A stretch of DNA of 64,000 nt. Source: Candidatus Krumholzibacteriota bacterium (lineage in GTDB: Bacteria > Krumholzibacteriota > Krumholzibacteriia > JAJRXK01). Position numbers and translations under genes: made by a program. The notes under the pieces were generated by a model. That model was not told the DNA's origin. It searched no databases and was given only the letters and a program-made list of their open reading frames with translations. Below are positions 14,025-35,391 of the stretch, piece by piece; the stretch's first letter is position 1; each line of letters starts with the position of its first letter. The stretch lies in contig CAVSGG010000005.1 in the NCBI GenBank assembly GCA_963727455.1, positions 529,538-593,537 on the forward strand, written 5' to 3'.

Positions 14025-15572
14025 CTACTTATCCTCTCTCGATTTTGGAGCCCAGTAGATCGCTTTGCCCATACCACTTGTGTCGTGGCGCAGCTCGTAT
14101 TCCTCCTGCCATCTTCGACGTTGCGCCTTGGTGCGAAAAAGCGCGTAATGAATGAAATCCTCTTTGATAACGCTCTCACCCTTTAAGCTTCTATCCAGAA
14201 TGAAAACCCGCGGATGGTAAGTATCCATGAGGTCACCGATGAAAACCGAATCACTTCTGGAATGCTCGAGCGCGAGATCGCGTGAGACCAGAGCACCCAA
14301 ATCCAAGATTTTGCGCTTGGAGGCCCAGCCAATCAGACCAATGTCACCGGTCGCCACCAGATCGTCGCGATTCGTGTTGGATTGAAGCCAATCCGCAACT
14401 TTCTGATAACGGCCACCTACGGATTCTCGAATCCTCGCGCTTCGATAGCTCTGAAGGGTCATGGAAATCAGGATGAGTCCAATAGCGAAGGTGGTTGCTA
14501 CGGATGGCTTCCGCAGTATGCGCAAGATTCCTGTGGGAAGAGTGATGCTGAGCAGAAGAACGAAACAGAGACAGCTGGGGACGCCGTACCAGGAGAAGAG
14601 CCGACCCGGATGTCCGAGCAAGTAGAAGGAAATGTAGGCGAGTAGCGAAAGCGTCAGCAAAAATCCCATGCTCGAAATGGCTCTTAGGTGACGCTTCAAA
14701 AACCAAGCGAGAAGGATGAGGCAGAGTAGGCCCAAAACAGAGGTTGCAAGAACCCCCATCCGGAGAAATACAGTATCGGGTAAACCAAAGAGCAAAGAGC
14801 TAATGTAGAGTGACAGATCAGCAAAGCTGTGAACGGCATTCAGCGAAGTACTGGCCTTCGCAAGAGCCGAATTGGGAAGAATGGAGCCATACTGAGTGAT
14901 CGCAAGTATGAACCAACCCAAGCCCATGACTGCGGCAATTACCGCACTGATCAAGGCCGATGTGAATCTCCGGAATGCCGCGACAGCCAATAAGACTCCA
15001 AAGAGGATGACGCCCTCCGGGCGTGTCAATCCGGTGACTCCACCCCAAACTCCTCGCACTACGCTTCGGCCCTTCAAATGTGCTTCCCACATCCCGAGGA
15101 TACCCAAGAGGAATAGCGGCGTTTCCATGCCCTCGATCGAACTGTCCACGAAAGCAAACCATACGGTAAAGATCATTGCTCCGAAGAGCGCACTCTCCTG
15201 TGAGAAAGAAGTCAAGAGTCTCCAGATGAACCACAGTCCCACGAGGTAGCAAAGAATCCCTAACCAGGGAAGAAAGGCAATGAGTGTTGCATCGGGAAGC
15301 ATTTTCGCCAAGGCGGCGAGGAGGTACATGTATAGGGGCGAGGTGAACCCCATTACAATTTCGCCCTGATTGTATACTAGGCCCAGGCCAGCCCGAAAAT
15401 TCTCTGCATATCGCAGGTAGATGTAGGTATCATCGATGAAGAGGCCGCCGCTCAGTCGGTGGGCAAGAAGCCTCAGGACGATTCCTATCCCTGCCAACAG
15501 CAGGAGATACCCAGGAATAGTCTCTTGAAGCTCGGCCTTCCTCGGAGAACCTTTAGCTGCAGAGTTCCACAT
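14025..15572 (-). CDS. GT-C-like membrane glycosyltransferase (AftB/PMT-like)
   Basis: DDTYIYLRYAENF..GLVYN.GE..GFTSPLY, GMETPL, TRPEG, DIGLIGW..ILDLGALV. Confidence 0.72.
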   Translation of the reverse strand: MWNSAAKGSPRKAELQETIPGYLLLLAGIGIVLRLLAHRLSGGLFIDDTYIYLRYAENFRAGLGLVYNQGEIVMGFTSPLYMYLLAALAKMLPDATLIAFLPWLGILCYLVGLWFIWRLLTSFSQESALFGAMIFTVWFAFVDSSIEGMETPLFLLGILGMWEAHLKGRSVVRGVWGGVTGLTRPEGVILFGVLLAVAAFRRFTSALISAVIAAVMGLGWFILAITQYGSILPNSALAKASTSLNAVHSFADLSLYISSLLFGLPDTVFLRMGVLATSVLGLLCLILLAWFLKRHLRAISSMGFLLTLSLLAYISFYLLGHPGRLFSWYGVPSCLCFVLLLSITLPTGILRILRKPSVATTFAIGLILISMTLQSYRSARIRESVGGRYQKVADWLQSNTNRDDLVATGDIGLIGWASKRKILDLGALVSRDLALEHSRSDSVFIGDLMDTYHPRVFILDRSLKGESVIKEDFIHYALFRTKAQRRRWQEEYELRHDTSGMGKAIYWAPKSREDK

Positions 15573-15582
15573 ATTGCAGCCC

Positions 15583-16857
15583 TTATTCGACAGTGTTGAC
15601 GTAATTGCGCCCGGACTTGATCTGAATGGCGCGTGCAACGAAGACCGGAAGAAAGGCGCCCAGTCGGTAGACGTTTTCGGGATAGCGGAGATAGCGGGCG
15701 ATCCCGAAGTACAGGGGGTGCATCACGGGCACGAAGACTCCACCAACGGCTCGAGCCGCCCGAAAATGGGTCAGGAAGTTGTCCCGAAGGTTCACGGGGA
15801 AACTCCTGTCTCCCGCTGCGGAAATGTCCGCGAAGTGCTGCCCGATGCTCAGTGTCCTTCGAACACCTTTCGTCGTCGGGAGGTGCAGGGGCAAATAGTA
15901 GCCATTGCGATACATGGTTTCATAACGATAGCCGGCCGCTTCCACCGCATCCCGCGTGCGTGGAGTGGTGTTGGTGCGGAGCTCACCTCCATGCATACAG
16001 ACACCCTCGACCTCTGCCCCAACTAGCTCCGCCAGAGTTCTCTTCTCTTCGATCGCAGCGGCTTCTTCGGTCCCAAAACGGCTCTGGGCCGTGGTCACGA
16101 ACTCACCATGAAGCGCAACCTCGTGCCCACGCATCTTCGCGACGCAATTGCGAATTTCCCGGTTGCCGTAGAACAGCCCCATGGGTCGCAAGTAAACGGT
16201 GCTTCTCAGTCCGAAGGTTTCTTCGAGCGCATGGATGGCGGGGAGGTTCACGATGGCCTTGTCGACGTCGTAGCGTGTCGATACTGCCGCACGATAGGGG
16301 CGACCATCACGGTGCGGCAGGGTCCAGATCCGAAGCTCCGGAAGGCCCTTTGCCCGGTGGGCTTCTCTCAGGAGATTACGCAGTCTATCTAGAGCCTTCT
16401 CGTCGAAACGTTGGTGCTTTTCAGCAGAGCGGCGGAGTTCTTCGAGCTGGATTCGTGCCGCCCTGGATTCGAGGCTCGGGTCGTTTTCCGGCGACCCGAG
16501 CATATGCCCGTAACCAAGGTGAGAAATCACTTCCCGCGCGAAGGGATCCGAGAACTCTGTTCCGAGAGTCGGCAGTCCCTGATCAGGTGAAGTGGAATCG
16601 AGAGGAAAGGGAGGGATGCGGAGTTCGGTTCTGTCCACCTCGACGACCGCATTCTCCAGATGGGTGTCCAGGCGGCCCTCGGCGTCCAGTGTCAGACTAG
16701 CCTCTTGGCGTTGCTCCCACCAGCTTGCGATCTCCCTTTGGGGGACACACCACACGTCTCCATCGGCGCGTACTTCTTCCAGGAATTCGCGGTAGGCGGG
16801 GGCATCCTTCATGAAGCGATGACGCGCGATCGCACGCTTGATCATCGCCAGATTCAT
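15583..16857 (-). CDS. Polysaccharide deacetylase (NodB/CE4-like) protein
   Basis: RYDVD, STVYL, HEVALHGE, GVCMHGG, VMHPLY motifs. Confidence 0.62.
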   Translation of the reverse strand: MNLAMIKRAIARHRFMKDAPAYREFLEEVRADGDVWCVPQREIASWWEQRQEASLTLDAEGRLDTHLENAVVEVDRTELRIPPFPLDSTSPDQGLPTLGTEFSDPFAREVISHLGYGHMLGSPENDPSLESRAARIQLEELRRSAEKHQRFDEKALDRLRNLLREAHRAKGLPELRIWTLPHRDGRPYRAAVSTRYDVDKAIVNLPAIHALEETFGLRSTVYLRPMGLFYGNREIRNCVAKMRGHEVALHGEFVTTAQSRFGTEEAAAIEEKRTLAELVGAEVEGVCMHGGELRTNTTPRTRDAVEAAGYRYETMYRNGYYLPLHLPTTKGVRRTLSIGQHFADISAAGDRSFPVNLRDNFLTHFRAARAVGGVFVPVMHPLYFGIARYLRYPENVYRLGAFLPVFVARAIQIKSGRNYVNTVE

Positions 16858-17120
16858 TCCGAAGAATCCTCGAGAGAGCTCTCCACGAAGCTGATCATTT
16901 GATCCAAACTGTCGAAGATCTGGAAGTTATCGTCGTCGATATAGATGCCAAATCGCTCTTCGATCGCGGTCAGGAGTTCGATGCCGCTCATGGAGTCCAT
17001 ACCCAAGCCTCCTGAAAAGACGGGCACATCAGTGGGCAAGTCCTCCGGTGCGATGGCACCGTCCAGCGCTCGGGAAACGATGGCTCGAATGTCCGTTTCG
17101 ATCGCCTCGCGCGAACTCAT
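16854..17120 (-). CDS. Acyl carrier protein
   Basis: Acidic 88-aa protein with GLGMDSMSGIELLTAIEERFGI phosphopantetheine site. Confidence 0.9.
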   Translation of the reverse strand: MSSREAIETDIRAIVSRALDGAIAPEDLPTDVPVFSGGLGMDSMSGIELLTAIEERFGIYIDDDNFQIFDSLDQMISFVESSLEDSSE

Positions 17121-18166
17121 GAGGGTTCCCCAATCGATCGCGGTGTCAAGGTCACCCAACTCGGACATTCGATGCTACCCTTGGAAAGGTCGAAGACGAA
17201 CACGCTCGACTCTTCGTTGCTCAAGTTCTGGTCTTTTTCGAAGCCCATAATCTTGTAGAGAAGTCCGATCTGACGATTTCGCTCGGTTCGGATGTATTTA
17301 GCTCTAAGCCAACGGCAGCCGCTTTCTTGGGCGAGTCGACCCAGGTGAGAGAGAAAGGCTGTCCCGAGTCCTCTTCCTGCAACTCGGCAGGAGAGGAGTA
17401 GAATCTCGATATTCCATGCATCGGGTTCGTGGCGGATGAGCGACACGCCACAGCGTCCATAATCTCCGTGTTTGTCCTCGAGAGAGCACACGTGAAACGA
17501 CATTTCCTTCGCACGGAAGAACTCCAAGATCTCCTCGTCGCTGTAGCGGATTCCAGTGGAATTGAACTGGTTGGTTCTCGTCACCAGTTCACTGATTCTG
17601 GGGAGATCATCTTCGTCTGCGAGCCACGGAGTTGCGACCATATCGAGAGACGTGAGGAAAGCTTCACGGCGGCCCTCGTGCTCTTCTTCCAGTCGCTTGC
17701 GCTCCGCCTCTTCGACGTACATGCGTCCTCTGGCACGCGCCTCGGGGGTATCGTAGTTGAGCTGGAATTCGGGAAGCTCGATCAACTTTCGATAATCCAG
17801 AGCGTCATAAGTGCGCACTTCCGGCAGCATGGCTTGCACGGACTCTCGCTCGAAGGGATTGTCATCGACGAAAGCCACTGCATCGAGTCCGATGTTGAGG
17901 GTCTCCACGATCCTCTTGATGTTGTCTTCCTTCGGATCCCAATTCACTTGCGGATGGACGAAGTACTGCATGAGGCCGAAGTTCTCCACAAATTCGAGGG
18001 CCTTTTCCTCGTTCTTGGAGGCGATCGACTGCACGAGTCCTCGTTCTTTCAATTCCGCGAGCACGTCGGTGATGCCCGGACGGAGTTGAACCTCCGGATC
18101 CTCCAGACAAATCCCGTCCCACAGCGTATTATCGAGGTCCCAGATCACACATTTGATGCCGGCCAT
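17117..18166 (-). CDS. fkbH: FkbH-like HAD-IIIC phosphatase/glyceryl-ACP synthase with C-terminal GNAT-like domain
   Basis: WDLDNTLW, SIASKN, FVDDNPFER, RTNQFN, LLSCRVAGRG. Confidence 0.92.
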   Translation of the reverse strand: MAGIKCVIWDLDNTLWDGICLEDPEVQLRPGITDVLAELKERGLVQSIASKNEEKALEFVENFGLMQYFVHPQVNWDPKEDNIKRIVETLNIGLDAVAFVDDNPFERESVQAMLPEVRTYDALDYRKLIELPEFQLNYDTPEARARGRMYVEEAERKRLEEEHEGRREAFLTSLDMVATPWLADEDDLPRISELVTRTNQFNSTGIRYSDEEILEFFRAKEMSFHVCSLEDKHGDYGRCGVSLIRHEPDAWNIEILLLSCRVAGRGLGTAFLSHLGRLAQESGCRWLRAKYIRTERNRQIGLLYKIMGFEKDQNLSNEESSVFVFDLSKGSIECPSWVTLTPRSIGEPS

Positions 18167-18183
18167 GTGGGAATCTCCCATAC

Positions 18184-18714
18184 TCAGGGGAGCTTTCGCT
18201 CCATTCGCTGTGCTGAGGGCTTGCGCAAAGGGCGCAGGCCCTTCTTGAATTCTTCCATGCTCTTGCGATAGCCGAGTGTCTTGGTGACACGGGCCATGGG
18301 CTTGGCCTCCGGCGATCCACCGACCAGAGTATAGTCGGGGACACTCTTGGTAACCACGGATCCCGCGGCTACCACCGCGCCCTCGCCAATGCGAACGTTG
18401 GGCATGATGACGGAGTTGGGACCGATAAAGGCGTCTGGACCAATTTCGACCGACCCTACCCCTCTCATGTGCGAGATGATGATCACCGAAATTCCGATCA
18501 CGGAGCGGTCGTGGATGGTCACTTTCTCCGGATACTCGTCATCGATGTAGACGTTCGCTCCCAGGAAGATCTTACCATCGATCTTGACGCCCCGGGCGCG
18601 GTGAAGCCACACACGTAGGCTCTCCGAGCCTGGGCAGAGTCTCGCCCATACGTGCAAGACTCTCTGAAAAACTCGTTGAGGAAGTCGGAGGAATCGCGAT
18701 AATTCGCTATTCAT
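18184..18714 (-). CDS. Hexapeptide-repeat (LbH) acyltransferase
   Basis: VEIGPDAFIGPNSVIMPNVRIGEGAVVAAGSVVTKSVP repeats. Confidence 0.85.
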   Translation of the reverse strand: MNSELSRFLRLPQRVFQRVLHVWARLCPGSESLRVWLHRARGVKIDGKIFLGANVYIDDEYPEKVTIHDRSVIGISVIIISHMRGVGSVEIGPDAFIGPNSVIMPNVRIGEGAVVAAGSVVTKSVPDYTLVGGSPEAKPMARVTKTLGYRKSMEEFKKGLRPLRKPSAQRMERKLP

Positions 18715-18775
18715 GGTAAGCTCGATTTTATCGCAGGATCCTGAAGTTCTGCAAGAGTTTAGGGAGATCAAGCGG

Positions 18776-20644
18776 ATGTGTGGGATCGCCGGCGCTGCGT
18801 TCGGTCGCGAGGAATTCCTCGAGGACGGTGAGCTGCGCGAGCGCCTTCAGCGGATGAGTCGGGCCATCCGTCACCGTGGACCGGACGATGCCGGGATCGA
18901 GACCTTTGGCCGCTGCGGACTGGCGTTCGTTCGTCTCTCGATCATCGACCTCGAGGGCGGTCACCAGCCCATGGCCAGCCCATCCGGGCGCTACACCGTC
19001 GTCTTCAATGGCGAAATTTACAACTTCCGCGAACTTCGCCGAGACCTCGAGTCCCGGGGCTGGCAATTCCGGACCAAGAGCGATACCGAAGTCCTGTTGG
19101 CGATGTACGAGGTCCATGGCGAAGACATGCTGGCACGGCTTAACGGCATGTTCGCCTTCATGATCTATGATCGGGAACGAAATGTACTTTTCGGTGCCCG
19201 GGACCGCCTCGGAATCAAACCGCTCTTCTATGCACCGACGGAGGGGGGCATGGTCTTCGCCAGCGAACTTCCCTCCATTCGGGCGTGGGGCCTGCCGGCC
19301 GCAGAGATCGATCCGCAGGCTTTCTCGGACTATTTGAGCTATGGCTTCGTATGCTCACCCCGGACCATCTATCGAAATGTGTATTCTCTGCCGCCTGGAC
19401 ACTCGATACGCCTCGAGGATGGCAAGATCGAGACTCAGCGCTACTGGCAAGTAATGCGCGACGACAGCGTTCCGAGGAACATGGATGAAGCCGTCGATGC
19501 CCTCGAAGCACTCCTGGAATCCGCAGTCAGCCTGCGCACCGTCGCCGATGTTCCTCTCGGCGCTCTCTTGAGCGGGGGGATCGATTCCGGCCTCGTGACC
19601 GTCATGCTGGCCCGGTCCTCGTCGAGTGCAGTTCGCACCTTTTCCGTAGGTTTCGAGGAGGAAGGATTCGACGAGCTTCCCTGGGCGCGGCGGGTCGCGG
19701 AGATGTACGGAACGGAGCATACCGAAATCATGTGCCGTCCCTCGATTCGCGATCTGGTCGCCAAGCTCGCTGTCGGCTACGGACAGCCCTTCGGCGATTC
19801 GAGTGCAATTCCCTCGTTTCTGGTTTGTCAGGAGGCTCGTCGCCACGTGACGGTCGCCCTCAGTGGCGATGGTGGAGATGAAGTTTTCGCCGGATATCAG
19901 AGACACACAGAGATGGCTCGTTGGAGGCCCTCACCCTTGCGCCCAGGAGCTGCGCTGCTTTATCAGCTTCTGCACCGGCTCTTGCCACCCATGACCAAGG
20001 GGATGAGTCGCATGCGACGGGCGGGCTTGTCAGAGCGGGAGCGACAGATAGATACGCTCGTCGTTCTAAGCGAAGGCTATAAAGAGTGGCTGGCGGGCCC
20101 ACGACTTTTCCCGGCCTTAAGTCGAGAGACAAGTCTCGAACTGGCTCGTCGTGCGGGTGGACCCTTCGAAAGGGAAGGGGGGGTCCGACGATTTCAGCAC
20201 CAGGATCTCGTCATGTACTTGCCGAACGATGTTCTTCAGAAAGTGGATCGCGCCAGCATGCTCAATTCCCTGGAGGTGCGCGTTCCACTCCTGGATCACC
20301 GTATCGTGGAATTCGGTCTCAATTTGGCAACGTCCCTTAAGAACGACGGAGCAAACGGCAAGCTGGTCCTCAGAGAACTCGGGAGAAAGGTTTTGCCAGA
20401 GGGACACCTCAAGAAGCCCAAGACCGGTTTCTCGGTTCCCATCGATCGTTGGCTTCGCGAGGAGCTGGATGATCTGGTCCAGGACTCCCTGGAACATTCC
20501 CATCTGGCAGAAGAGGGGTGGTTGAAGCAGACTTCACTACACCAGATCATGGATTCGCACCGGCAAGGGCGTTCAATGGCCAGCGCGTTGTGGTTCTTGA
20601 TGATGGCGGAGCTCTGGTACCGGGATGCTCGCACATATCGGTAG
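18776..20644 (+). CDS. asnB: Asparagine synthase (glutamine-hydrolysing)-like amidotransferase
   Basis: MCGIAG, HRGPDD, FNGEIYNF, LSGGIDS, SGDGGDE, KVDRASM. Confidence 0.93.
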   Translation: MCGIAGAAFGREEFLEDGELRERLQRMSRAIRHRGPDDAGIETFGRCGLAFVRLSIIDLEGGHQPMASPSGRYTVVFNGEIYNFRELRRDLESRGWQFRTKSDTEVLLAMYEVHGEDMLARLNGMFAFMIYDRERNVLFGARDRLGIKPLFYAPTEGGMVFASELPSIRAWGLPAAEIDPQAFSDYLSYGFVCSPRTIYRNVYSLPPGHSIRLEDGKIETQRYWQVMRDDSVPRNMDEAVDALEALLESAVSLRTVADVPLGALLSGGIDSGLVTVMLARSSSSAVRTFSVGFEEEGFDELPWARRVAEMYGTEHTEIMCRPSIRDLVAKLAVGYGQPFGDSSAIPSFLVCQEARRHVTVALSGDGGDEVFAGYQRHTEMARWRPSPLRPGAALLYQLLHRLLPPMTKGMSRMRRAGLSERERQIDTLVVLSEGYKEWLAGPRLFPALSRETSLELARRAGGPFEREGGVRRFQHQDLVMYLPNDVLQKVDRASMLNSLEVRVPLLDHRIVEFGLNLATSLKNDGANGKLVLRELGRKVLPEGHLKKPKTGFSVPIDRWLREELDDLVQDSLEHSHLAEEGWLKQTSLHQIMDSHRQGRSMASALWFLMMAELWYRDARTYR

Positions 20645-20656
20645 AGGAGTAGGTGA

Positions 20657-21496
20657 ATGGACGACAGGCGGGTTTGTCCTTGCTGTGAAGGATCGATGGA
20701 GGCCTGGAAGAGCTGGCTTTGGGGATGTCCGAACTGCAGGTTTCTGAGTTCGACCCTAAGTCCTGGTGCGGGGGCTCCGATCGAAGGGGTTGAGGAACTT
20801 CGAAGGAGAAACTTTGCGAGTCTCCTCGATTGGGTGCAGAGACATAGAGAGCTCAAAGGAGCGCGGCTACTGGAGGTAGGATGTTCCACCGGGACTTTCT
20901 TACTTGAAGCTCGCTCCCGTGGATCCGAGGTGCGCGCGATCGAACCCGAGCTGAAGGCGGTTCTGAGAGCCCGTGAGTTGGGATTCGAAGTGGATCATGG
21001 GTTTTTCCCGACTGACCTCAGCTGTGAGGGGCCATTCGACATTGTCGTCTTCAACGATGTCTTCGAGCATCTGCCCAATCCACGAGAATCCCTGGCTGCA
21101 GCGCGTGACCTCATCACAAAGAGCGGCCTTTTCGTGTTGAATCTGCCGAGTTCCAATGGCGTGCTGTACCGCACGGCCGAAGTGCTCGATCGATTGGGAA
21201 TATCAGGGGCACTTGAGCGGCTTTGGCAGCGTGGTCTGAGTTCTCCACATCTCAGCTACTTCAATGGAGGGAATCTGCACGAGTTCCTGACGCGGAATTC
21301 CGATCTCGAGATCTTGGAGCACGGAAGCCTATTGACGATGAGTCGTAGCGGGCTGCTAGCGCGCATACAAAGTACTGTCAGTGGCCCGGCAAGTTGGTTC
21401 GTTTACGGGTGTTTGTATCTGTTGGTAGGATTGCTCGAGAAGATGCCTTCAGACATCCAGTTCGTTATCGCAAGACCTGCTGGAGATGGCCCCTGA
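20657..21496 (+). CDS. Class I SAM-dependent methyltransferase with N-terminal Zn-ribbon
   Basis: CPCC..CPNC, LLEVGCSTG, DVFEHLPNP, HLSYF. Confidence 0.85.
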   Translation: MDDRRVCPCCEGSMEAWKSWLWGCPNCRFLSSTLSPGAGAPIEGVEELRRRNFASLLDWVQRHRELKGARLLEVGCSTGTFLLEARSRGSEVRAIEPELKAVLRARELGFEVDHGFFPTDLSCEGPFDIVVFNDVFEHLPNPRESLAAARDLITKSGLFVLNLPSSNGVLYRTAEVLDRLGISGALERLWQRGLSSPHLSYFNGGNLHEFLTRNSDLEILEHGSLLTMSRSGLLARIQSTVSGPASWFVYGCLYLLVGLLEKMPSDIQFVIARPAGDGP

Positions 21497-22573: not shown

Positions 22574-24097
22574 ATGAAGCCTTCAAATGTGTCCATCGTC
22601 ATGCGACTCTCCTGTCGAGAGCAAGAGGTTGCCGAGATTATGATGACTGAAGGGCAGGCGCGCTCTCTATGGGGCTACTCGACCGTACACCCGCATCGGG
22701 CTTTGGCCGTAATTCTACTTCTTCATCTCCTTCTTGCCCTTCGCTTTGCGAGCGTGGGCTTGGACATCGACGAGTTCGAGTTCGTACGCGAGCCCTATGA
22801 ACTCCTGGGTGGGGATTACACGAAGGGGTATCTGAAGCAGAGGGAATTCGGGAAAGCGCTGGACGTCGCTCGCCGCGCGTACTGGTTCTATTGGAAGTAT
22901 CGACCTCTCAATGCACCGTTGGTCGCTCCGAAGGATCGCCGGACCTTCGCCGAAGAGGAGAGAGAATTTGGATACGTCGCGCCTACCAGGATTGCCAGAG
23001 ACGACCCAGAAGCTGTTGCCAAGTACAAATCTCGATTAATCGTTCCCGAGCCTGACAGAATGTATCGGCATGGAGCCGGTAAGCCACTTTTGCCTGCGCT
23101 ATTGATGGTCCCCCAGTTGGGGCTAACTTCAGCAGTATTGGGCTCACCGAGGCGTCTACTGGAGATTCAGTTCTCAAGTGGCTACCACGCGGCCTTCATT
23201 CTCGTTCGCTTGGACTTTGTTCTAGCTGGGCTTCTGGCAGTTTTCTTGACATACTGGCTTCTGCAAGGCTTCGCCAGCCCAGGAGTGGCGTTGGTAGGGG
23301 CCGCAATTCTTGGCTTGAATCCAATCTCCGTAAGTTACTTTCCGAACATCCATCATGATGCGATCATGGTGCCCTTTCTACTCGGAAGCATGGGCTTGCT
23401 TATCAGACGCAAACTCGTTCTTGGTGGAATCGCATTTGGCTTGGCCCTAGCAAGCAAGAACTCAGCGATACTTGTTGCTCCTGCAATGGCCTATCTCCTT
23501 CTGTCTGAAAAAGTCTGGTCGGGCGAAAGTTTGTCGTCGCACGCGAAGATAGTCGGATGCGCGAAGAGGATTTTGCTGTTCGCAGTAACTGCAATCGTGG
23601 TCTTGGTGCCATTCGCTAACCCAATCTCTTACACGAAAGAACTACTCACTCCGGTCAGTGGTCGAGCCTACGACTCTCGTGGTGAGAACATCGCCGGCTA
23701 CTCGCTCGTCGAGCGGGGTGGGGATGCGGATGACTCGCAGTCGATTTCGCACTCCGTGGTGAGGCCGGAGATCGACTTTTTGCAGAGAGTCACTGGGTTC
23801 AAGTTTACTCTTTGGTTTCCTGCGCTTCTGGGTATGCTCTTAATGGCTCTCCACCTGCAAGAGACAGGATCGCGGGCAGCCTGGATTTGGATGCTCGCGA
23901 TCTTCCCTGCTGGCGCCGTCTTCAGCTACTCGATGAATTATAGGGCCCTCATGTTTCTGCCACCATTCGCAATACTCGGAGCAACCTTGTTGCCGCGACG
24001 CTGGGCATGGTTACTAGTTCTTGCCCTTTGTTGCGCGAGCGTGGTCTATGCATGGGATCCAATGACCGTGAATATCTACCACACTCCGGTGCGATAG
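22574..24097 (+). CDS. GT-C (PMT/GT39-like) membrane glycosyltransferase
   Basis: LDIDEFEFV acidic motif after the first TM, HHDAIM, GLALASKN, multiple TMs; start uncertain. Confidence 0.65.
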   Translation: MKPSNVSIVMRLSCREQEVAEIMMTEGQARSLWGYSTVHPHRALAVILLLHLLLALRFASVGLDIDEFEFVREPYELLGGDYTKGYLKQREFGKALDVARRAYWFYWKYRPLNAPLVAPKDRRTFAEEEREFGYVAPTRIARDDPEAVAKYKSRLIVPEPDRMYRHGAGKPLLPALLMVPQLGLTSAVLGSPRRLLEIQFSSGYHAAFILVRLDFVLAGLLAVFLTYWLLQGFASPGVALVGAAILGLNPISVSYFPNIHHDAIMVPFLLGSMGLLIRRKLVLGGIAFGLALASKNSAILVAPAMAYLLLSEKVWSGESLSSHAKIVGCAKRILLFAVTAIVVLVPFANPISYTKELLTPVSGRAYDSRGENIAGYSLVERGGDADDSQSISHSVVRPEIDFLQRVTGFKFTLWFPALLGMLLMALHLQETGSRAAWIWMLAIFPAGAVFSYSMNYRALMFLPPFAILGATLLPRRWAWLLVLALCCASVVYAWDPMTVNIYHTPVR

Positions 24098-24099
24098 TA

Positions 24100-26508
24100 G
24101 TGTGGCGACGCATCGCTCGGATTAGCTTTCTGCTGGTTGCATGCATTCTGGGCCTCGTACTCCTTGCCCTCATACCCCTGACCATCGTGCTTCGCTCCAG
24201 TCTGCCCCGTCTCGAAGGCGAGTGTAGACTGGTTGGTCTACAACAAGTCGTGAGCGTGACCCGCGATTCTCTTGGCGTTCCGGAGATCGAAGCGCAGAAT
24301 CGCATGGATGCAGCACGTGCCCTTGGCTTCCTCCACGCGCAGGACCGTTTTTTCCAGATGGACCTCTTGCGGCGCAGCGCGGCGGGAGAACTGTCCGCGC
24401 TCTTGGGTCCAGCTCTCTTGCCAACGGATCATTCCCTGCGCCGGCACCGCTTTCGTGAGAGAGCCAAGCTGCTCGTATCTCGATGCCATGGACGCAATCA
24501 CCAGATCCTCCTGGCCTACACTGAAGGCGTGAACGAGGGCCTGACCGCTCTGCGCGCGCGACCCTTCGAATATCTGCTGCTGCGCCAGAAACCCAAACCA
24601 TGGCGTCCCGAGGACACCTATTTGACGCTGTACGCCATGTTCTTGGATCTGGGTCTCTCCGGAGCGCACGCCGAGGAGACTTACGAGAGCGTGAGGGAGA
24701 TGCTCCCGCCAGCTCTCGCCACGATGCTCCTGCCGAGGGGCAATCGCTGGGACGCTCCTCTGGAGCGGGGAGAAATGGAAGGGGTGGTCCTTCCCGGCGC
24801 GAGCCAGGTGGATTTGCGTCACGACCAACGCTATGAAACCAGCAACGGCCCGATGGAAGAGCCTGCCCCGCCGGAGCCGGCCGGTTCGAACAACTGGGCC
24901 GTGGCGGGCTCGCTCACCGGGCACGGCGGAGCCCTGCTGGCCAACGATATGCATTTGGGACACGCTCTCCCCAACATCTGGTATAGGGCTCTCATGAGTT
25001 GGCCCGAGGGCGGGGGAGTTCGCTCGGTGGTGGGAGTCACTCTGCCCGGCGCGCCGGCGCTGGTCGCAGGTAGCAACGGAGATGTGGCCTGGGGCTTCAC
25101 CAACAGCCAGGGGGATTGGTGCGATCTCGTCCGGGTCGACCTCGCCGCGGACGACTCGAGCCTCTACCGCACGCCGACTGGCTGGAGACACCTACAGCCT
25201 TTCGCGGAGCGCTTTGAGGTCGCCGGTGCCGAGGCGGATACCAACTGGGTGGACGAGACCATCTGGGGCCCCATCTGGACGCACGACGACGAAGGACGTC
25301 CGCTCGCCCTGCACTGGACGGCCTATGACACGAGCGCGGTGAATCTGAAACTTATGGATTTGGAGTCAGTCACTAGCGTCGATTCCGTGGTGGCGATGGG
25401 CGCTTACCTGGGGATTCCCGAGCAGAACTTGGTCTGTGCCGACCGCAACGGGCGCATCGCCTGGACGTTGGCCGGAGCCATCCCCGAACGGATCGGTTTC
25501 AGCGGTCGTTTTCCTCGCTCCTGGGCCGACGGCAGTTGCCGTTGGGAGGGGTACTGTGATGCGCAAACTCAACCCAAACTGCTCGACCCTCCCGAGGGAC
25601 GACTGTGGACGGCCAACAACCGGGTGACCGTAGGCAAAGACCTCGATCGGATCGGGAACGGGGGCTACGCGCTGGGCGCGCGCGCCACACAGATCCGCGA
25701 CGACCTGCGCGCATTGAACCATCCGGTGGAGAAAGACATGCTGGCGATCCAACTGGATGACCGGGCCGACTTCATGGGCCAGTGGCGAGAGCTTTTTCTC
25801 GGAGTTCTGCAACGAACACATCCCGGACTGAATGAGCCGAGGGCGGAGTTCGCAAGGATCGTGCGCGACAATTGGTCGGGCCGCGCGGACACGGAGTCAG
25901 TGGCATATCGCTTGGTGCGCGAGACCACCGAGCGCTGCGTGGCGGAGATCTACGCCATGCTCACCGCACCCTGTCGCGAGGCGAATCCGAACTTCCGATC
26001 CTCATGGCTACCCTTCCGTCACGCAGTGTGCTGGAAGCTGCTGAAAGAACAGCCGTCGAATCTCCTCACGGACCGTTACGCGAGTTGGGATGCCCTTGCG
26101 CTCACCGCCATCGATCATGTTATCGAAGAGGCCGTCGCCGATGGCCGCGCACTCGAGGATTACCGCTGGGGAGAACGCAACATGGTGGACATCGCCCATC
26201 CCTTCTGCCGTCTCTTTCCCTGGCTCAGACGCTGGCTCTCGCTTCCCAGGCGCGCTCTGCCGGGAGACTCCTGGATGCCGCGCGTACAACATCCACGGCG
26301 GGGGGCGAGCGAAAGGCTGGTGGTTTCTCCGGGACGCGAGGAGCAAGGCATTTTCGAGATGCCGGGGGGACAGAGCGGTCATCCGCTCTCGCCCTTCTTC
26401 AGGGCCGGTACGCGGGCCTGGGAGGAGGGCAAAGCCACGCCGCTACTCCCCGGGCCCGCAAAATACCGGCTCGTCCTCAGGCCCCCGCAATTAGAGGACA
26501 GAGACTAG
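24100..26508 (+). CDS. Penicillin acylase / acyl-homoserine-lactone acylase family Ntn-hydrolase, N-terminally anchored
   Basis: RDSLGVPEI, GFLHAQDRFFQMDL, GSNNWAV (catalytic Ser), ANDMHL, TANNR, PGGQSGHPLSP. Confidence 0.92.
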   Translation: MWRRIARISFLLVACILGLVLLALIPLTIVLRSSLPRLEGECRLVGLQQVVSVTRDSLGVPEIEAQNRMDAARALGFLHAQDRFFQMDLLRRSAAGELSALLGPALLPTDHSLRRHRFRERAKLLVSRCHGRNHQILLAYTEGVNEGLTALRARPFEYLLLRQKPKPWRPEDTYLTLYAMFLDLGLSGAHAEETYESVREMLPPALATMLLPRGNRWDAPLERGEMEGVVLPGASQVDLRHDQRYETSNGPMEEPAPPEPAGSNNWAVAGSLTGHGGALLANDMHLGHALPNIWYRALMSWPEGGGVRSVVGVTLPGAPALVAGSNGDVAWGFTNSQGDWCDLVRVDLAADDSSLYRTPTGWRHLQPFAERFEVAGAEADTNWVDETIWGPIWTHDDEGRPLALHWTAYDTSAVNLKLMDLESVTSVDSVVAMGAYLGIPEQNLVCADRNGRIAWTLAGAIPERIGFSGRFPRSWADGSCRWEGYCDAQTQPKLLDPPEGRLWTANNRVTVGKDLDRIGNGGYALGARATQIRDDLRALNHPVEKDMLAIQLDDRADFMGQWRELFLGVLQRTHPGLNEPRAEFARIVRDNWSGRADTESVAYRLVRETTERCVAEIYAMLTAPCREANPNFRSSWLPFRHAVCWKLLKEQPSNLLTDRYASWDALALTAIDHVIEEAVADGRALEDYRWGERNMVDIAHPFCRLFPWLRRWLSLPRRALPGDSWMPRVQHPRRGASERLVVSPGREEQGIFEMPGGQSGHPLSPFFRAGTRAWEEGKATPLLPGPAKYRLVLRPPQLEDRD

Positions 26509-27914: not shown

Positions 27915-29078
27915 ATGAATGTCGCCATCCTGGGGATCAAGACTCTGCCCGCGGTGGCGGGAGCCGATCGGGTCGTCGAGAAGCTCCTGGAGAACTTCTC
28001 CGGAGAAAATGACTATTGGATCTACCTGCGGAAGGACACGTCCTCAAAGACCGTCTGCCACGACAATCTGCATTTCATCCACGTCCCTGCGCTCAGTGGA
28101 AAGCATCTCGGGTCGTTCAGCTACTTCTTCCTGTGCTGTGTGCACTATCTGCTCAAGGGTCGCTACGATCTCGCCCACGTGCACAATTCGGATTTCGGTT
28201 TCTTCGTGCCCCTCCTGCGCCTCAAATTCAGGGTTCCCATCCTGGGCACCTTCCACGGCGATCCCTACACGCGCCAGAAGTGGGGACGCTTCGCAAAGTT
28301 CTACTTGAGGCTCTCCGAGAGATTCTTCGTGCAGTTCTGCCACCGCCTGAGTTCGGTTTCTCGCTTCAAAGGGCGGGTCAATGGGCTGTGGAGCAGCAAG
28401 CAAGTGGACTACATCCCTAACGGCGTTGACCCCTACTTTCAGGAGAGTCACCCCGAGAGTCTCGATCTCGCGGATATGGCTTTGATGCCCGGGGCCTACG
28501 TCCTCTTCGCCTGTGGCCGGCTCGATTCCACGAAGGGACTGCACCATCTCCTGAGTGCTTGGGAGAGTGTGGATACCCCGTTGAAGTTGTGCGTCGTGGG
28601 CGACTTCACGCACGATGCGGCCTACAGCGCGAGAGTGGACGCAAGGATCGCTGCCGATGCTTCGATCGTTGCGCAACGAAGGCTGCTGGGGAGGGAGGCC
28701 CTTTTGGAGTTGGTGCGAAACTGCAAGCTCTTCGTGTTTCCTTCCGAATACGAGGCGATGTCGATGATGCTGCTCGAGGCGATCTCCTGCAAACGCCCCG
28801 TTCTCTGTTCAGACATTCCCGCCAACCGTGAGCTTCTCGTCCCCGACTATCCCTACCTTCATCGCACAAAGGATTCGGATTCGCTCGCCGAGCGACTTCA
28901 GGCCGCGTTGACGGATACGCGGCTCGAGGATTGGAGCTCGCGGCTCTACGAGCGCTGCATGCACGAGTACGCATGGGACTCCATCGCGTCCGCCTATGAG
29001 AGTCTCTATGCCTCGCTGAAAGGAGAGCCGCTCTCCGAAAGTTCGGTGGGGATGCCGGCGCAGAACGGGAGTGCCTAG
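27915..29078 (+). CDS. Glycosyltransferase family 4
   Basis: MNVAILGIK, GRLDSTKG, FPSEYEAMSMMLLEA, CSDIPAN. Confidence 0.87.
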   Translation: MNVAILGIKTLPAVAGADRVVEKLLENFSGENDYWIYLRKDTSSKTVCHDNLHFIHVPALSGKHLGSFSYFFLCCVHYLLKGRYDLAHVHNSDFGFFVPLLRLKFRVPILGTFHGDPYTRQKWGRFAKFYLRLSERFFVQFCHRLSSVSRFKGRVNGLWSSKQVDYIPNGVDPYFQESHPESLDLADMALMPGAYVLFACGRLDSTKGLHHLLSAWESVDTPLKLCVVGDFTHDAAYSARVDARIAADASIVAQRRLLGREALLELVRNCKLFVFPSEYEAMSMMLLEAISCKRPVLCSDIPANRELLVPDYPYLHRTKDSDSLAERLQAALTDTRLEDWSSRLYERCMHEYAWDSIASAYESLYASLKGEPLSESSVGMPAQNGSA

Positions 29079-32080: not shown

Positions 32081-32329
32081 GGAATCCTCCCAGAAAGTGC
32101 GCTTCTCGGCCCCAACTCGGAGATTAGCAGAGTGCGGGCCAGCTGGCGAGGGGAGAGCTGGGGCCGGTCCGGCACCTTCCGTTCCGGTCAGGCGGGGCCG
32201 AGGGGATCCGCGGCGACGGGACCGGGGCGGGCGGGCTAAGCTCCTCTTGGAAGGGAACTTGCTTGAGCGAAAAGTGTCGCATTGAGCCTCTTGGATTCCT
32301 CCGATTTTCTATGCTATACTGCGGAGGTC

Positions 32330-33442
32330 ATGCGAACCGATATCCAACAGGTACCGTTCCTGGACCTGATGGCCCAAAACGGCCCCCTTCGTGACCAGAT
32401 CAATACCGCGATGGCGCGCGTCATCGACCAGAATGCGTTTATTTTGGGACCTTCGCTGGTTTCCTTCGAAACCGCATTCGCGGATTACTGCGAAGCCGCG
32501 CGCTGCGTTGGCGTCAGCTCGGGCTGTATGGCCCTTCAGCTGATGATGCAGGCGGCCGGGGTTGGACCCGGGGACGAAGTCATCACCGTCCCCAATACCT
32601 TCGTGGCCACGGTCGAGGCAATTCTCGCGGTGGGAGCGACACCCGTGCTCAGCGATGTCGACCCCGAAACCTGGCTCATGGATCCCGCCGCGGTGAAGGA
32701 GAAGATCACTCCGCGTACCAAGGCAATCCTCGCAGTTCACCTCTACGGCATTCCCTGCGATCTCGATGCCCTGCGCGCACTCGCGCAAGCGCATGAGCTC
32801 GTGCTATTGGAGGATGCGGCGCAGGCGCACGGCGCGCGTTGGAAATCGTCTCGCATTGGCAGCAGCAGCACCGCCGCGGCCTTTTCGTTCTACCCGGGGA
32901 AGAACCTGGGAGCGATGGGCGACGGTGGCGCCGTGGTGACGGACGATCCTGATCTGGCCGAGAAAGTGGTGGCGTTGCGCCATCACGGTCAGCTCGAGAA
33001 GAACATCCATAGCCTCGTGGGAACCACCGGGAGACTCGATTCTCTGCAGGCGGCGGTTCTCGAGGTGAAGTTGGCACACCTGGACGACTGGAACGACGGA
33101 CGCCGTCGCGTGGCCAAGCGGTATCGAGAACGACTCGCCGGTACTCGGTATCGGATGCCGCAACCCCCAAAGGGGGCGGAGCCTGTCTATCATCTGTTCG
33201 TGGTCAACCATCCGGAGGTAGAGAAGCTCAGGGAGCTACTGAGGGAGCACCGAATCGGACATGGGGCGCATTACCCCATGGCGGTACACCAGCATCCTGC
33301 TTTCTCTAGCCTAGGTCGCAACGGTGAATTCCCGATTGCCGAAGGGATTTGCAACCACATCGTCTCGCTTCCGATCTTCGCGGAGCTGGACGATGAGATG
33401 GTGGACTACGTCAGTGAGGTGTTGCTGAAGCTCGAATCCTGA
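32330..33442 (+). CDS. DegT/DnrJ/EryC1/StrS sugar aminotransferase
   Basis: VPFLDL, EDAAQAHGA, FSFYPGKNLGAMGDGG, RLDSLQAA; GGAGG RBS. Confidence 0.93.
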   Translation: MRTDIQQVPFLDLMAQNGPLRDQINTAMARVIDQNAFILGPSLVSFETAFADYCEAARCVGVSSGCMALQLMMQAAGVGPGDEVITVPNTFVATVEAILAVGATPVLSDVDPETWLMDPAAVKEKITPRTKAILAVHLYGIPCDLDALRALAQAHELVLLEDAAQAHGARWKSSRIGSSSTAAAFSFYPGKNLGAMGDGGAVVTDDPDLAEKVVALRHHGQLEKNIHSLVGTTGRLDSLQAAVLEVKLAHLDDWNDGRRRVAKRYRERLAGTRYRMPQPPKGAEPVYHLFVVNHPEVEKLRELLREHRIGHGAHYPMAVHQHPAFSSLGRNGEFPIAEGICNHIVSLPIFAELDDEMVDYVSEVLLKLES

Positions 33443-33576
33443 GGCGAACTTCTTGTTTCGGGTTTCGGATGGAGAACCTGTAGAACATCGTGCCTGGTTT
33501 GAAAGGGCCGGGCGCCTGATTCGGGTCGGCCATTGATCACCGTGAAGTGCAGCTCAGCGCAGGGACGGCTCCAGAA

Positions 33577-34302
33577 ATGAAGAAAGACGCGACAGCCTTG
33601 AATCTCGCAACGCTCGAAAAGCAATTGGAAGCGGCGGAAGTCTTCAGTCTTCGCATCGGCAGGCTGGAACAATCACAGCTCCAGTTGGGCGTGAAGCGCG
33701 CGATGGATCTCTTCTTTTCGGCACTGGTGTTGGTGGGGGGAGCTCCGCTCTTTCTCTTCCTCGCCCTCGCCGTGAAGTGCAGCTCGCGCGGCCCGGTATT
33801 TTTCCGGCAAACCCGTTTGGGTAAGAACGGTATCCCTTTTACTTTTTATAAGTTCCGGACGATGCATCATAACAATGATGAATCGGTTCACCGCAGCTTC
33901 GCTCAGAGTTTCATCAACGGAAAGATGGAGAGTCACCAGGGAGGTCGTGTCTTCAAAATGATCAGCGACCCGCGTGTGACTCGCATCGGAACTTTCCTGC
34001 GGCAGAGCAGTCTCGATGAACTCCCGCAGTTCTGGAACATTCTGAAGGGCGAGATGAGCCTCGTCGGGCCGCGACCGCCCATTCATTACGAATTGGATCA
34101 CTATCAGGACTGGCACAAGGATCGCTTGAAAGCCAAGCCGGGACTCACCGGTCTCTGGCAGGTCAGCGGCCGCAGCCGAGTGCCCTTCGACGAGATGGTA
34201 ATGCTGGACTTGCATTACATCACCCATTGGAGTCTCGCGATGGATCTGAGGATCATCTTCAAGACGATTCCCGTGCTCCTGAAGGGAGATGGGGCGTACT
34301 GA
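33577..34302 (+). CDS. Priming sugar transferase (Bac_transf, polyprenyl-phosphate phosphoglycosyl transferase)
   Basis: [44 protein letters not shown]. Confidence 0.93.
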
Positions 34303-34353
34303 TCACCCCCGATTCCAAATGCCAGATTTCAGACCCTAAATCGAGGACCACCA

Positions 34354-35391
34354 ATGAGCGCTCCCATTCGCGTTGGTGTCATTGGGGTTGGGTACTGGGG
34401 ACCCAATCTCGTACGAAATTTCTCATCTCTTCCCAATACGCAGTGCGTCTGGGCCGTGGACTTGGACCAAGAGCGCCTGACTCACATGCAGGGGCTCTAT
34501 CCCTCTCTGCAAGTCAGCCAGAGGGCCTCCGACGCGATCGAGGACCCCTCGGTTGACGCTATCGTATTGGCCACCCCCGTGGACAAGCACGAGGAGATCG
34601 CGGTCAAGGCTCTGGACTATGGAAAACACGTCTTCGTGGAGAAGCCGATGGCCACCACGGTGGAGGAGTGTCACCGCATGATCGCCGCCGCCGAGCGTAA
34701 CGGGAAGGTCCTGATGGTGGGGCACACCTTTCTCTATAATTCGGTGGTGCGGAGGATCCGTCAGCTCATCGAGGAAGGCGAGTTGGGAGAGATCTTCTAC
34801 ATCAACATGACCCGCGTGAATCTCGGTCTCTTCCGGGAAGACGTGAACGTCGTCTGGGACCTCGCTCCGCATGACATTTCCATCCTGGGGTACTTGCTCG
34901 ACTCGCATCCTCTGAAAGTTCACGCCACCGGCAACGCATTCGTGCAGCCGGGAATCGAGGACGTGGCTTTCGTGGACCTGGAATACCCAGGTAGCGTGCG
35001 AGCGCATCTCCACGTGAGTTGGCTCGACCCCAACAAGATTCGCCGGGTCACCGTGGTCGGAAGCAGGAAGATGTTGGTCTACGACGACACTTCCAATCTC
35101 GAGAAACTGCGTGTATACGACAAGGGCGTCACCAAGATGCCGCACTACGACAGCTTCGGAGAGTTTCATCTGAGCTACCGTTACGGAGATATCGTCCTGC
35201 CCCGCATCGAAGAGGCCGAACCCCTCAAGACCGAAGCCCAGCATTTCCTTCAGTGCATTCGGGAGGGAAAGAAGCCCTTGAGCGATGGAGCCAATGGCCT
35301 CAAGGTGGTGGAAGTTCTGGAAGCCGCCTGTCGATCCATTACCGACGGCGGCGCGGCCATCGAGTTGAATGGGGTGGGGAGCCCGCGCTGA
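34354..35391 (+). CDS. Gfo/Idh/MocA family oxidoreductase
   Basis: GVIGVGYWGPN, HVFVEKP, WDLAPHD, SWLDPNK. Confidence 0.9.
   Translation: MSAPIRVGVIGVGYWGPNLVRNFSSLPNTQCVWAVDLDQERLTHMQGLYPSLQVSQRASDAIEDPSVDAIVLATPVDKHEEIAVKALDYGKHVFVEKPMATTVEECHRMIAAAERNGKVLMVGHTFLYNSVVRRIRQLIEEGELGEIFYINMTRVNLGLFREDVNVVWDLAPHDISILGYLLDSHPLKVHATGNAFVQPGIEDVAFVDLEYPGSVRAHLHVSWLDPNKIRRVTVVGSRKMLVYDDTSNLEKLRVYDKGVTKMPHYDSFGEFHLSYRYGDIVLPRIEEAEPLKTEAQHFLQCIREGKKPLSDGANGLKVVEVLEAACRSITDGGAAIELNGVGSPR

Follow-up and report, generated by a model that had tools for sequence, protein, structure and literature searches.

Glyceroyl (2,3-dihydroxypropionyl) groups are known on bacterial surface sugars, and their genetic basis is mostly unexplained. 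For Pse5Am7Gra of Tannerella forsythia, the candidate gene 'remains elusive' (PMC6120980; see also PMC5378307). In Neisseria, PglB2 gives rise to GATDH, in which an amino sugar of a surface glycan carries an N-glyceroyl group; an ATP-grasp domain replaces the acetyltransferase domain in this protein, and swapping the acyl-transfer module alters the decoration (PMC11130364, in the sections available). Here we describe a gene set on the minus strand at positions 14,025 to 18,714 of a 64,000-nucleotide (nt) stretch of a Candidatus Krumholzibacteriota genome (contig CAVSGG010000005.1, positions 529,538 to 593,537; hereafter the window). It encodes a hexapeptide-repeat (LbH) acyltransferase, an FkbH-domain enzyme, a dedicated acyl carrier protein (ACP) and a protein with the predicted fold of CE4 polysaccharide deacetylases, followed by a GT-C-fold membrane protein (Table 1). 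Judged from its sequence and gene content, the locus is best explained as a cassette that acylates a surface polysaccharide by way of a carrier protein. We put at about even the chance that the FkbH enzyme makes glyceryl-ACP, that the LbH protein passes glyceroyl on to an amino sugar, and that the CE4-fold enzyme prepares the acceptor. Unlike the cassette, the Neisseria system involves neither a carrier protein nor an FkbH.

Several described systems share parts of this arrangement. The methoxymalonyl-ACP and tetronate sets of FK520 (FkbH/FkbJ) and tetromadurin (Mad7/Mad8 and Mad14/Mad12) place a stand-alone ACP next to an FkbH-domain enzyme, as the cassette does (PMC7489565, which together with PMC13122637 describes the FkbH chemistry of methoxymalonyl-ACP sets in the portions available). 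Unlike these sets, the cassette adjoins an LbH protein, a deacetylase-fold protein and glycosyltransferases; it has no dehydrogenase or FabH-like gene beside it, and its assembly has no polyketide synthase (PKS) or non-ribosomal peptide synthetase (NRPS) that we could find. The Dlt D-alanylation system (DltA ligase, DltC carrier, DltB MBOAT and DltD) likewise brings a small acid from a dedicated carrier to an envelope polymer. Unlike Dlt, the cassette in the window has no adenylation enzyme and no MBOAT, its transferase candidate is the LbH protein, and all of its products except the GT-C protein look cytoplasmic; sister cassettes do share with Dlt a DltA-like adenylation enzyme that scores below the DltA cut-offs. 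LpxA, LpxC and LpxD comprise acyl-ACP-using LbH acyltransferases with a de-N-acetylase between them, and thus deacetylate and re-acylate. The cassette differs from them in that its deacetylase fold is CE4/PuuE-like rather than LpxC-like, and its acyl group would be a C3 hydroxy-acid rather than a fatty acid. The tetronate gene set of Vibrio cholerae O1 is said, after a 1995 sequence paper, to include an ACP and a hexapeptide acetyltransferase. This tetronate branch (wbeK-O / rfbK-O) belongs to an O-antigen locus in which perosamine is N-acylated with an unusual hydroxy-acid, and WbeL, which has an ATP-binding domain, is needed (PMC3441752, available in part); it is without an FkbH or CE4-fold partner, and its acid is made by a different route. 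By analogy, the cassette would work like a blend of the FkbH/ACP extender-unit step, LpxA/LpxC/LpxD logic and Dlt-type carrier-dependent decoration. Family models identify the FkbH and hexapeptide proteins, and detect neither LpxA/LpxD, nor a Pfam CE4 domain, nor a full Dlt system.

A loader, a carrier and two sugar-modifying candidates in a glycan locus

The source genome is a metagenome-assembled genome (MAG) of 3.46 Mb in 18 contigs, 88.85% complete and 6.68% contaminated. A polysaccharide locus spans positions 1–41 kb of the window and encodes a Wzx-type flippase, nine GT4-family and two GT2 glycosyltransferases, an AsnB-type amidotransferase, a methyltransferase, a PMT_2-type GT-C, RmlD, a DegT aminotransferase, a Bac_transf initiating transferase and a Gfo/Idh/MocA oxidoreductase; glycosyltransferase genes flank the cassette on both sides. 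A first-pass annotation, made from the letters of the window, had described five tightly spaced or overlapping minus-strand genes in a glycan locus, and we found all five open reading frames (ORFs) where it placed them. The five genes are translationally coupled: 2 nt separate the LbH stop codon from the FkbH ATG, the FkbH stop overlaps the ACP-frame ATG as ATGA at 17,120, the ACP and CE4-fold genes again overlap as ATGA, and 10 nt lie between the CE4-fold stop and the GT-C ATG. The ACP that results from the ATG at 17,120 has 88 amino acids (aa), a size like that of its homologues. The GC content is 0.536 over 14–16 kb, compared with about 0.60 in the surroundings.

The FkbH protein, the sole copy in the genome, matched TIGR01686 at 253.7 bits (cut-off 146.65) over profile positions 3–322 of 323, with HAD Pfam hits as well. 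Its HAD DxDxT motif (DLDNT) and the cysteine of its LSCR motif (LLSCR), both reported on first pass, are present and, together with SIASKN, K84 and FVDDNPFE, are invariant in six of six aligned FkbH proteins. Cys265 of the LSCR motif is presumably the residue that holds the acyl group. The ACP matched PF00550 at 35.2 bits, with an Asp-Ser attachment motif that is unchanged across all 10 sequences. The LbH protein matched the hexapeptide model PF00132 at 47.1 bits (cut-off 27), and the window has no other hexapeptide protein.

Across the whole assembly, at 88.85% completeness, we detected one strong ketosynthase, which adjoins AcpP, two PP-binding carriers (AcpP and the cassette ACP), one AcpS-type transferase, no condensation domain and no PKS or NRPS. 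No enzyme found in the assembly would be able to take up glyceryl-ACP as an extender unit. The window was also said to lack PKS, NRPS and MBOAT genes, which holds; the single MBOAT of the assembly is on contig C1, with no cassette gene within 7 kb.

The 424-aa protein was assigned by structure. Its AlphaFold2 (AF2) model, built on 31 homologues, has a predicted local distance difference test (pLDDT) score of 91.5, and in a Foldseek search of the PDB it matched PuuE allantoinase, putative polysaccharide deacetylases, ArnD and WbmS (3cl6 (PuuE), 3rxz, 3qbu, 8t0j (ArnD) and 3hft) with E-values from 1.5e-7 to 2.7e-4. Among 16 matches at E ≤ 0.001, the top 15 were PuuE, polysaccharide, peptidoglycan or chitin deacetylases, ArnD and WbmS, and the 16th was a glucanotransferase. 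The modelled structure thus confirms, at fold level, a polysaccharide-deacetylase (CE4) barrel. D197, D199, H250, E252, H289 and H380 are invariant in 31 CE4-fold sequences, and the protein is without a signal peptide. The family is rare: a search of 1.84 billion representative proteins gave 174 hits at E ≤ 0.001, 26 of them at E ≤ 1e-30. A word-based protein search gave 66 hits, and all four with a named organism come from Krumholzibacteria.

A sequence-level tie to known deacetylases was rejected: Pfam gave nothing, and a PDB profile search gave a 30-residue N-terminal match with an E-value of 0.31. An hhalign comparison of the family with one PF01522 protein likewise gave a probability of 0.4%, and PDB sequence searches with two distant CE4-like relatives found no match. 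As a separate observation, the family looks circularly permuted (proteins P0130 and P0133; PDB 3s6o). The N-terminal helix (residues 21–50) matches residues 279–308 of 3s6o, the C-terminal end of ordinary deacetylase folds, in the same E 0.31 alignment; it also matches residues about 370–430 of relatives of ~440 aa, and residues 171–353 of these relatives match residues 213–394 of the query.

Recurrence of the cassette and exchange of its loader

We surveyed 208 Krumholzibacteriota genomes for the CE4-fold family and mapped the surroundings of 21 CE4 loci for five families by tblastn. The CE4-fold family had matches in 25 genomes, of which 21 were strong matches or clear fragments, and FkbH was above cut-off in nine genomes, with fragments in two more. 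The first-pass annotation had proposed co-occurrence elsewhere as a check, and the LbH-FkbH-ACP-CE4 arrangement was found in six of the 208 genomes: the source genome (G000), G037, G052, G059, G055 and G056, the last of which has FkbH-ACP-CE4 and a contig end before LbH. The four-gene core has the same order in the five further genomes, which represent five genera and two families, at 45–74% protein identity; the gene set is therefore not a chance one. In six genomes (G001, G005, G075, G076, G081 and G084), which have the CE4-fold, ACP and LbH genes, an AMP-binding enzyme takes the place of FkbH, and the genes are arranged in three different orders. LbH-CE4 pairs without a carrier or loader nearby are present in three genomes (G012, G072 and G032), an LbH-CE4 pair at a contig end in one (G080), and CE4 fragments only in two (G077 and G071). 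A DegT gene lies 1–2 kb from the cassette in G005 (locus L038), G037 and G055 (loci L006 and L052).

The recurring unit is smaller than the five-gene set first described. By tblastn, no homologue of the GT-C protein was found beside any of the five other FkbH-type cassettes or any of the six adenylation-type ones (0 of 11), and its sole trace was a 32-residue hit in locus L042, 8 kb from the CE4 gene. The GT-C protein is a local addition, and probably a periplasmic glycosyltransferase of this particular glycan. It has no Pfam family even at E ≤ 10 and no match in a PDB sequence search. Its AF2 model (pLDDT 87.0) matched AftB (1e-7), AftA, STT3, ALG12, ArnT and PglB, and all those listed among 29 Foldseek matches at E ≤ 0.001 are GT-C enzymes. 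On the AftB hidden Markov model (HMM) it scored 25 bits (cut-off 1050), over residues 68–113 only; these include a DD pair, and D48 is almost unchanged across 12 sequences.

The AMP-binding enzymes of the six sister cassettes matched PF00501 at 202–219 bits and TIGR01733 (amino-acid adenylation) at 304–327 bits (cut-off 317.4). DltA was their second or third best match, at 200–254 bits to DltA models, below the cut-offs. Pfam confirmed these enzymes and two of the extra ACPs. The source genome and G001, which is of the adenylation type, belong to one genus. In G005, of the same family and also of the adenylation type, RmlD and a GT4 gene flank the cassette, and the surrounding glycan locus (L038, G005:C2:230000-248000) is syntenic to that of the window, with identities to the window of 67–71% for GFO, Bac_transf, DegT and RmlD, 65% for GT4e and 48% for GT4f. 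The cassette is thus modular: ACP, LbH and CE4 are kept while the loader changes. Since a DltA-like enzyme replaces FkbH in sister genomes, the group that this machinery attaches in them would be an aminoacyl one. The G084 cassette (L047, G084:C5, 8552-12173) appears to be decaying, with CE4 in four frame pieces and an LbH frame that reads through 513 aa.

In a tree of 15 LbH rows, three groups track the loader type, and none of 200 shuffles needed as few label changes. Supports were 47/77 for the FkbH type (five rows), 94/100 for the no-loader type and 94/99 for the adenylation type with the contig-end case; the L047 row, taken from the wrong end of the 513-aa ORF, has a branch length of 5.5 and a meaningless placement. 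ACP identity was 47–52% within the FkbH type and 22–27% to the AMP type, and adenylation-type LbH proteins have a common 12-residue insert. The CE4 tree (17 rows, without L047 and the 141-aa L055 fragment) was star-like and did not track the loader, with three changes for the FkbH label and four for the AMP label. If LbH recognises the acyl-carrier, and the CE4-fold enzyme works on a sugar shared by all types, then LbH and ACP but not CE4 should group by loader, as they do here. We regard this apparent co-variation as descriptive support only.

We also looked for relatives of the FkbH protein. A scan of genome contigs with a single FkbH protein gave two loci, and a metagenome scan with an FkbH alignment gave 545 relatives, of which the best 80, 38–47% identical to the FkbH of the window, were kept. 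Neighbours were clustered, with one Pfam-checked representative per cluster; most loci, and the neighbours in L136-L139, were classed by tblastn or blastp against the representative. Among 76 loci with an identifiable FkbH ORF, an acyl-CoA dehydrogenase adjoins FkbH in 47, and a 3-hydroxyacyl-CoA dehydrogenase, an 85-aa ACP and a KS-AT-ACP polyketide synthase were found in 34, 27 and 25, respectively; one or both dehydrogenases are beside FkbH in 52 of the 74 loci with an FkbH ORF of at least 300 aa. Going by gene content, these nearest relatives are in classical methoxymalonyl-ACP sets like those in the available part of PMC7489565. In a FastTree analysis, the five full-length cassette FkbH proteins form a group of their own (SH-like support 100), apart from the methoxymalonyl type. 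We found no description of FkbH in a glycan locus in the literature, which is weak evidence, given that the search missed most subscription journals.

Other loci combine FkbH with deacetylase-like genes. L059 (4124-9059), L071 (4183-9083) and L121 (443-3590) contain an MBOAT (DltB-like, 142.8 bits), a 629-aa PgaB-like PF01522 protein, an ACP and FkbH, and are not homologous to the cassette in the window; the L121 MBOAT is cut off by the locus end, and the L059 set adjoins a VanW/PG_binding_4/G5 gene. In an Acidobacteriaceae MAG (L003, 9239-14237), a 603-aa long-form FkbH (TIGR01686, 227.4 bits) directly precedes genes for a PF01522 deacetylase, a GT2 and a WsaF-like glycosyltransferase, and no ACP was detected in this locus. 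L136 (G161:C2, 1495-5131, on a 5.3-kb contig), from a further Krumholzibacteriota genome, has a divergent AsnB, a weak LbH-like ORF (33% over ~95 aa) and a 562-aa long-form FkbH (282.4 bits). It has no CE4-like gene, and PDB sequence searches with two of its neighbours gave no match.

The proposed acylation scheme and its alternatives

We infer every step of the following scheme. The AcpS-type phosphopantetheinyl transferase, the only one in the genome, would turn the dedicated ACP into its holo form. The HAD half of FkbH would dephosphorylate 1,3-bisphosphoglycerate, and glycerate would be held on Cys265 and passed on as glyceryl-S-ACP. The CE4-fold enzyme would take the N-acetyl group off an amino sugar that is linked to a nucleotide or to undecaprenyl; or else the free amine would come from the DegT aminotransferase encoded in the locus, and a DegT/Gfo-Idh-MocA amino-sugar route could thus provide the acceptor. 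A trimeric LbH enzyme would then pass the glyceroyl group from the ACP to the amine, or to a hydroxyl. Exchange of the loader while ACP, LbH and CE4 stay, with LbH and ACP grouped by loader, is what an acyl-ACP-using LbH predicts. Glyceroylation had been suggested in the first-pass annotation; the recurring unit in glycan loci, the absence of PKS and NRPS, the FkbH kinship and the loader swap speak for that suggestion, whereas membership of the GT-C gene in the set and a likeness of LbH to LpxA/LpxD are not supported.

Several observations weigh against this scheme. The LbH protein is closest to CoA-dependent O-acetyltransferases: its best NCBIfam match was heptaprenylglyceryl-phosphate O-acetyltransferase at 75.6 bits, followed by Vat, WcaF and maltose acetyltransferases, and none of these matches reached its cut-off. 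A likeness to LpxA and LpxD is not borne out, with 42.1 (cut-off 207) and 34.7 bits (242.5) on LpxD models and 33.1 bits (226) on LpxA. The prediction of an LbH trimer in complex with ACP gave the scheme weak support: it scored 0.45 (runs 0.00, 0.50 and 0.45; best control 0.10), with a partner pLDDT of at least 63 and agreement between runs in at least 11% of contacts. The mark for such scores is reached by 58 of 80 solved complexes and two of 110 mismatched pairs, and scores above the mark of no more than 0.60 were given by only seven of the 80 solved complexes and by both passing mismatches; hence the LbH-ACP score is a weak pass, with one run at 0.00. Moreover, solved complexes of LpxA and LpxD with ACP exist and could, if memorised by the predictor, account for part of this pass. 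The 424-aa protein has no Pfam family even at E ≤ 10, no match to PF01522 and no NCBIfam match, and its Foldseek superpositions are modest (TM-scores of the top ten 0.33–0.38 by query and 0.46–0.54 by target; root mean square deviation 8–13 Å). The labels 'deacetylase' and 'GT-C' given on first pass therefore stand at fold level and find no counterpart in Pfam. Hydrolase activity of the modelled CE4-fold protein is putative, given the missing Pfam deacetylase match. The LbH-CE4 pairs of G012, G072 and G032 indicate that the pair can work without an ACP; by Pfam, the surroundings in G012 and G072 are non-glycan (amino-acid permease, carbonic anhydrase, acylphosphatase, HtrA and resolvase). In three genomes (G083, G086 and G078), CE4 was found without other cassette genes in the fetched flanks. 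None of the best 80 metagenome FkbH loci has a detectable LbH or CE4-like neighbour (tblastn, E ≤ 1e-4); to date, a single phylum is known to have the arrangement. Finally, the LbH and CE4 trees are small, support for the FkbH-type LbH group is weak and the kin are non-independent.

These weaknesses leave room for other assignments. The CE4-fold protein, rather than LbH, might take the acyl group from the ACP, as a transferase or a releasing hydrolase, with LbH as an ordinary acetyl-CoA O-acetyltransferase of the same glycan, in keeping with its resemblance to CoA-dependent enzymes. Such a role would parallel, by analogy, the esterase-fold proteins that work with carriers in Dlt-type systems, and a deacetylase-fold partner accompanies FkbH in three unrelated architectures (the cassette, L059/L071/L121 and the Acidobacteriaceae locus), with an ACP in the first two. 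However, it is LbH and ACP that group by loader, and not the CE4 proteins; the LbH-CE4 pair also occurs without any carrier; and the LbH-ACP complex prediction was a weak pass. CE4-fold enzymes are, to our knowledge, hydrolases and not thioester-dependent transferases. We consider this assignment unlikely.

Two further alternatives concern the acid and its destination. The cassette FkbH might load an acid other than glycerate, or act only as a phosphatase, in which case the decoration would be another small hydroxy-acid or none. The separate grouping of cassette FkbH proteins from the methoxymalonyl type is compatible with this, as is the lack of an assayed glycan-locus FkbH in the literature searched, but the match to TIGR01686 covers essentially its whole domain, the HAD and Cys motifs are invariant and a dedicated ACP is translationally coupled to FkbH. 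We know of no substrate other than 1,3-bisphosphoglycerate reported for the family, and regard a different acid as quite improbable. Equally, glyceryl-ACP might feed a lipid or small-molecule pathway encoded elsewhere, with the position in a glycan locus incidental. Characterised FkbH enzymes all serve PKS or NRPS products, and at this level of completeness and contamination a PKS or NRPS cluster could be missing from the assembly. Against this stand the lack of such domains in what was assembled, the placement of the cassette amid glycosyltransferase genes both here and in the syntenic locus of G005, the stop-start overlap of the ACP and CE4-fold genes and the directly adjacent LbH gene; an incidental position thus seems very unlikely.

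If the glyceroyl-transfer scheme is true, FkbH, ACP and LbH would add a second, testable mechanism of glyceroylation to the only route that we can cite, that of the ATP-grasp enzyme PglB2 in Neisseria, and would serve as a search key for decorations of this kind. The exchange of loaders among sister genomes would be a natural experiment on LbH/carrier co-adaptation and hints at a way to install non-acetyl acyl groups on glycans; the rare deacetylase-fold family, for which Pfam has no model, would also gain a likely role. A broader reading, possible though on balance doubtful, is that swappable cassettes of loader, carrier, LbH and a circularly permuted deacetylase fold write different N-acyl groups on the same polysaccharide in a serotype-like manner: glyceroyl via FkbH, aminoacyl via the DltA-like enzyme and acetyl without a carrier. 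The FkbH glyceryl-carrier would then be an unrecognised general glyceroyl route for both glycans and cell walls of bacteria, and the MBOAT-CE4-ACP-FkbH loci a 'glyceryl-Dlt' that builds on it.

Neighbouring genes

Table 1. Positions of the cassette genes and selected neighbours in the window
Feature	Positions	Strand	Basis and remarks
Hexapeptide-repeat (LbH) acyltransferase, 176 aa	18184..18714	-	PF00132; ORF 18184-18771 extends to TTG 18771, likely ATG 18714
FkbH-domain enzyme (HAD-IIIC phosphatase half and GNAT-like half, Cys265)	17117..18181	-	TIGR01686; proposed glyceryl-ACP synthase
Dedicated ACP, 88 aa from ATG 17120	16854..17120	-	PF00550; ORF extends to 17168
CE4/PuuE/ArnD-like-fold protein, 424 aa, predicted cytoplasmic	15583..16857	-	Foldseek; proposed acceptor-sugar de-N-acetylase
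GT-C-fold membrane protein, 515 aa, C-terminal soluble domain	14025..15572	-	AF2/Foldseek; ORF 14025-15638, likely ATG 15572
AsnB-type glutamine amidotransferase, divergent	18776..20644	+	PF00733 316 bits, GATase_7; start MCGI at 18776
S-adenosylmethionine (SAM)-dependent methyltransferase	20657..21496	+	PF13489 63.9 bits
DegT aminotransferase, Bac_transf, Gfo/Idh/MocA	32282..35391	+	PF01041 381.5, PF02397 223.4, PF01408 93.1 bits

The long AsnB ORF abuts the LbH ATG, but the MCGI start of the amidotransferase leaves a divergent intergenic region of 61 nt (18713-18776); amidation of a uronic or acyl carboxylate is a possible function of this enzyme. Elsewhere in the source genome, contigs C8 (481347-486325) and C9 (211612-216539) each carry one of a pair of hexapeptide hits that score the same and one of a pair of DegT hits that score nearly the same; the region has either been duplicated or belongs to the 6.68% contamination. 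The glycan locus has a second GT-C (PMT_2) at 22574-24097 and a gene of the penicillin-amidase family (PF01804, 460.9 bits) at 24007-26508; with an Ntn acylase in the locus, N-acyl groups could be remodelled as well. At the edge of the locus, a 705-aa protein (29071-31188) has a metallophosphatase-like region together with FGE-sulfatase and FlgD Ig-like domains.

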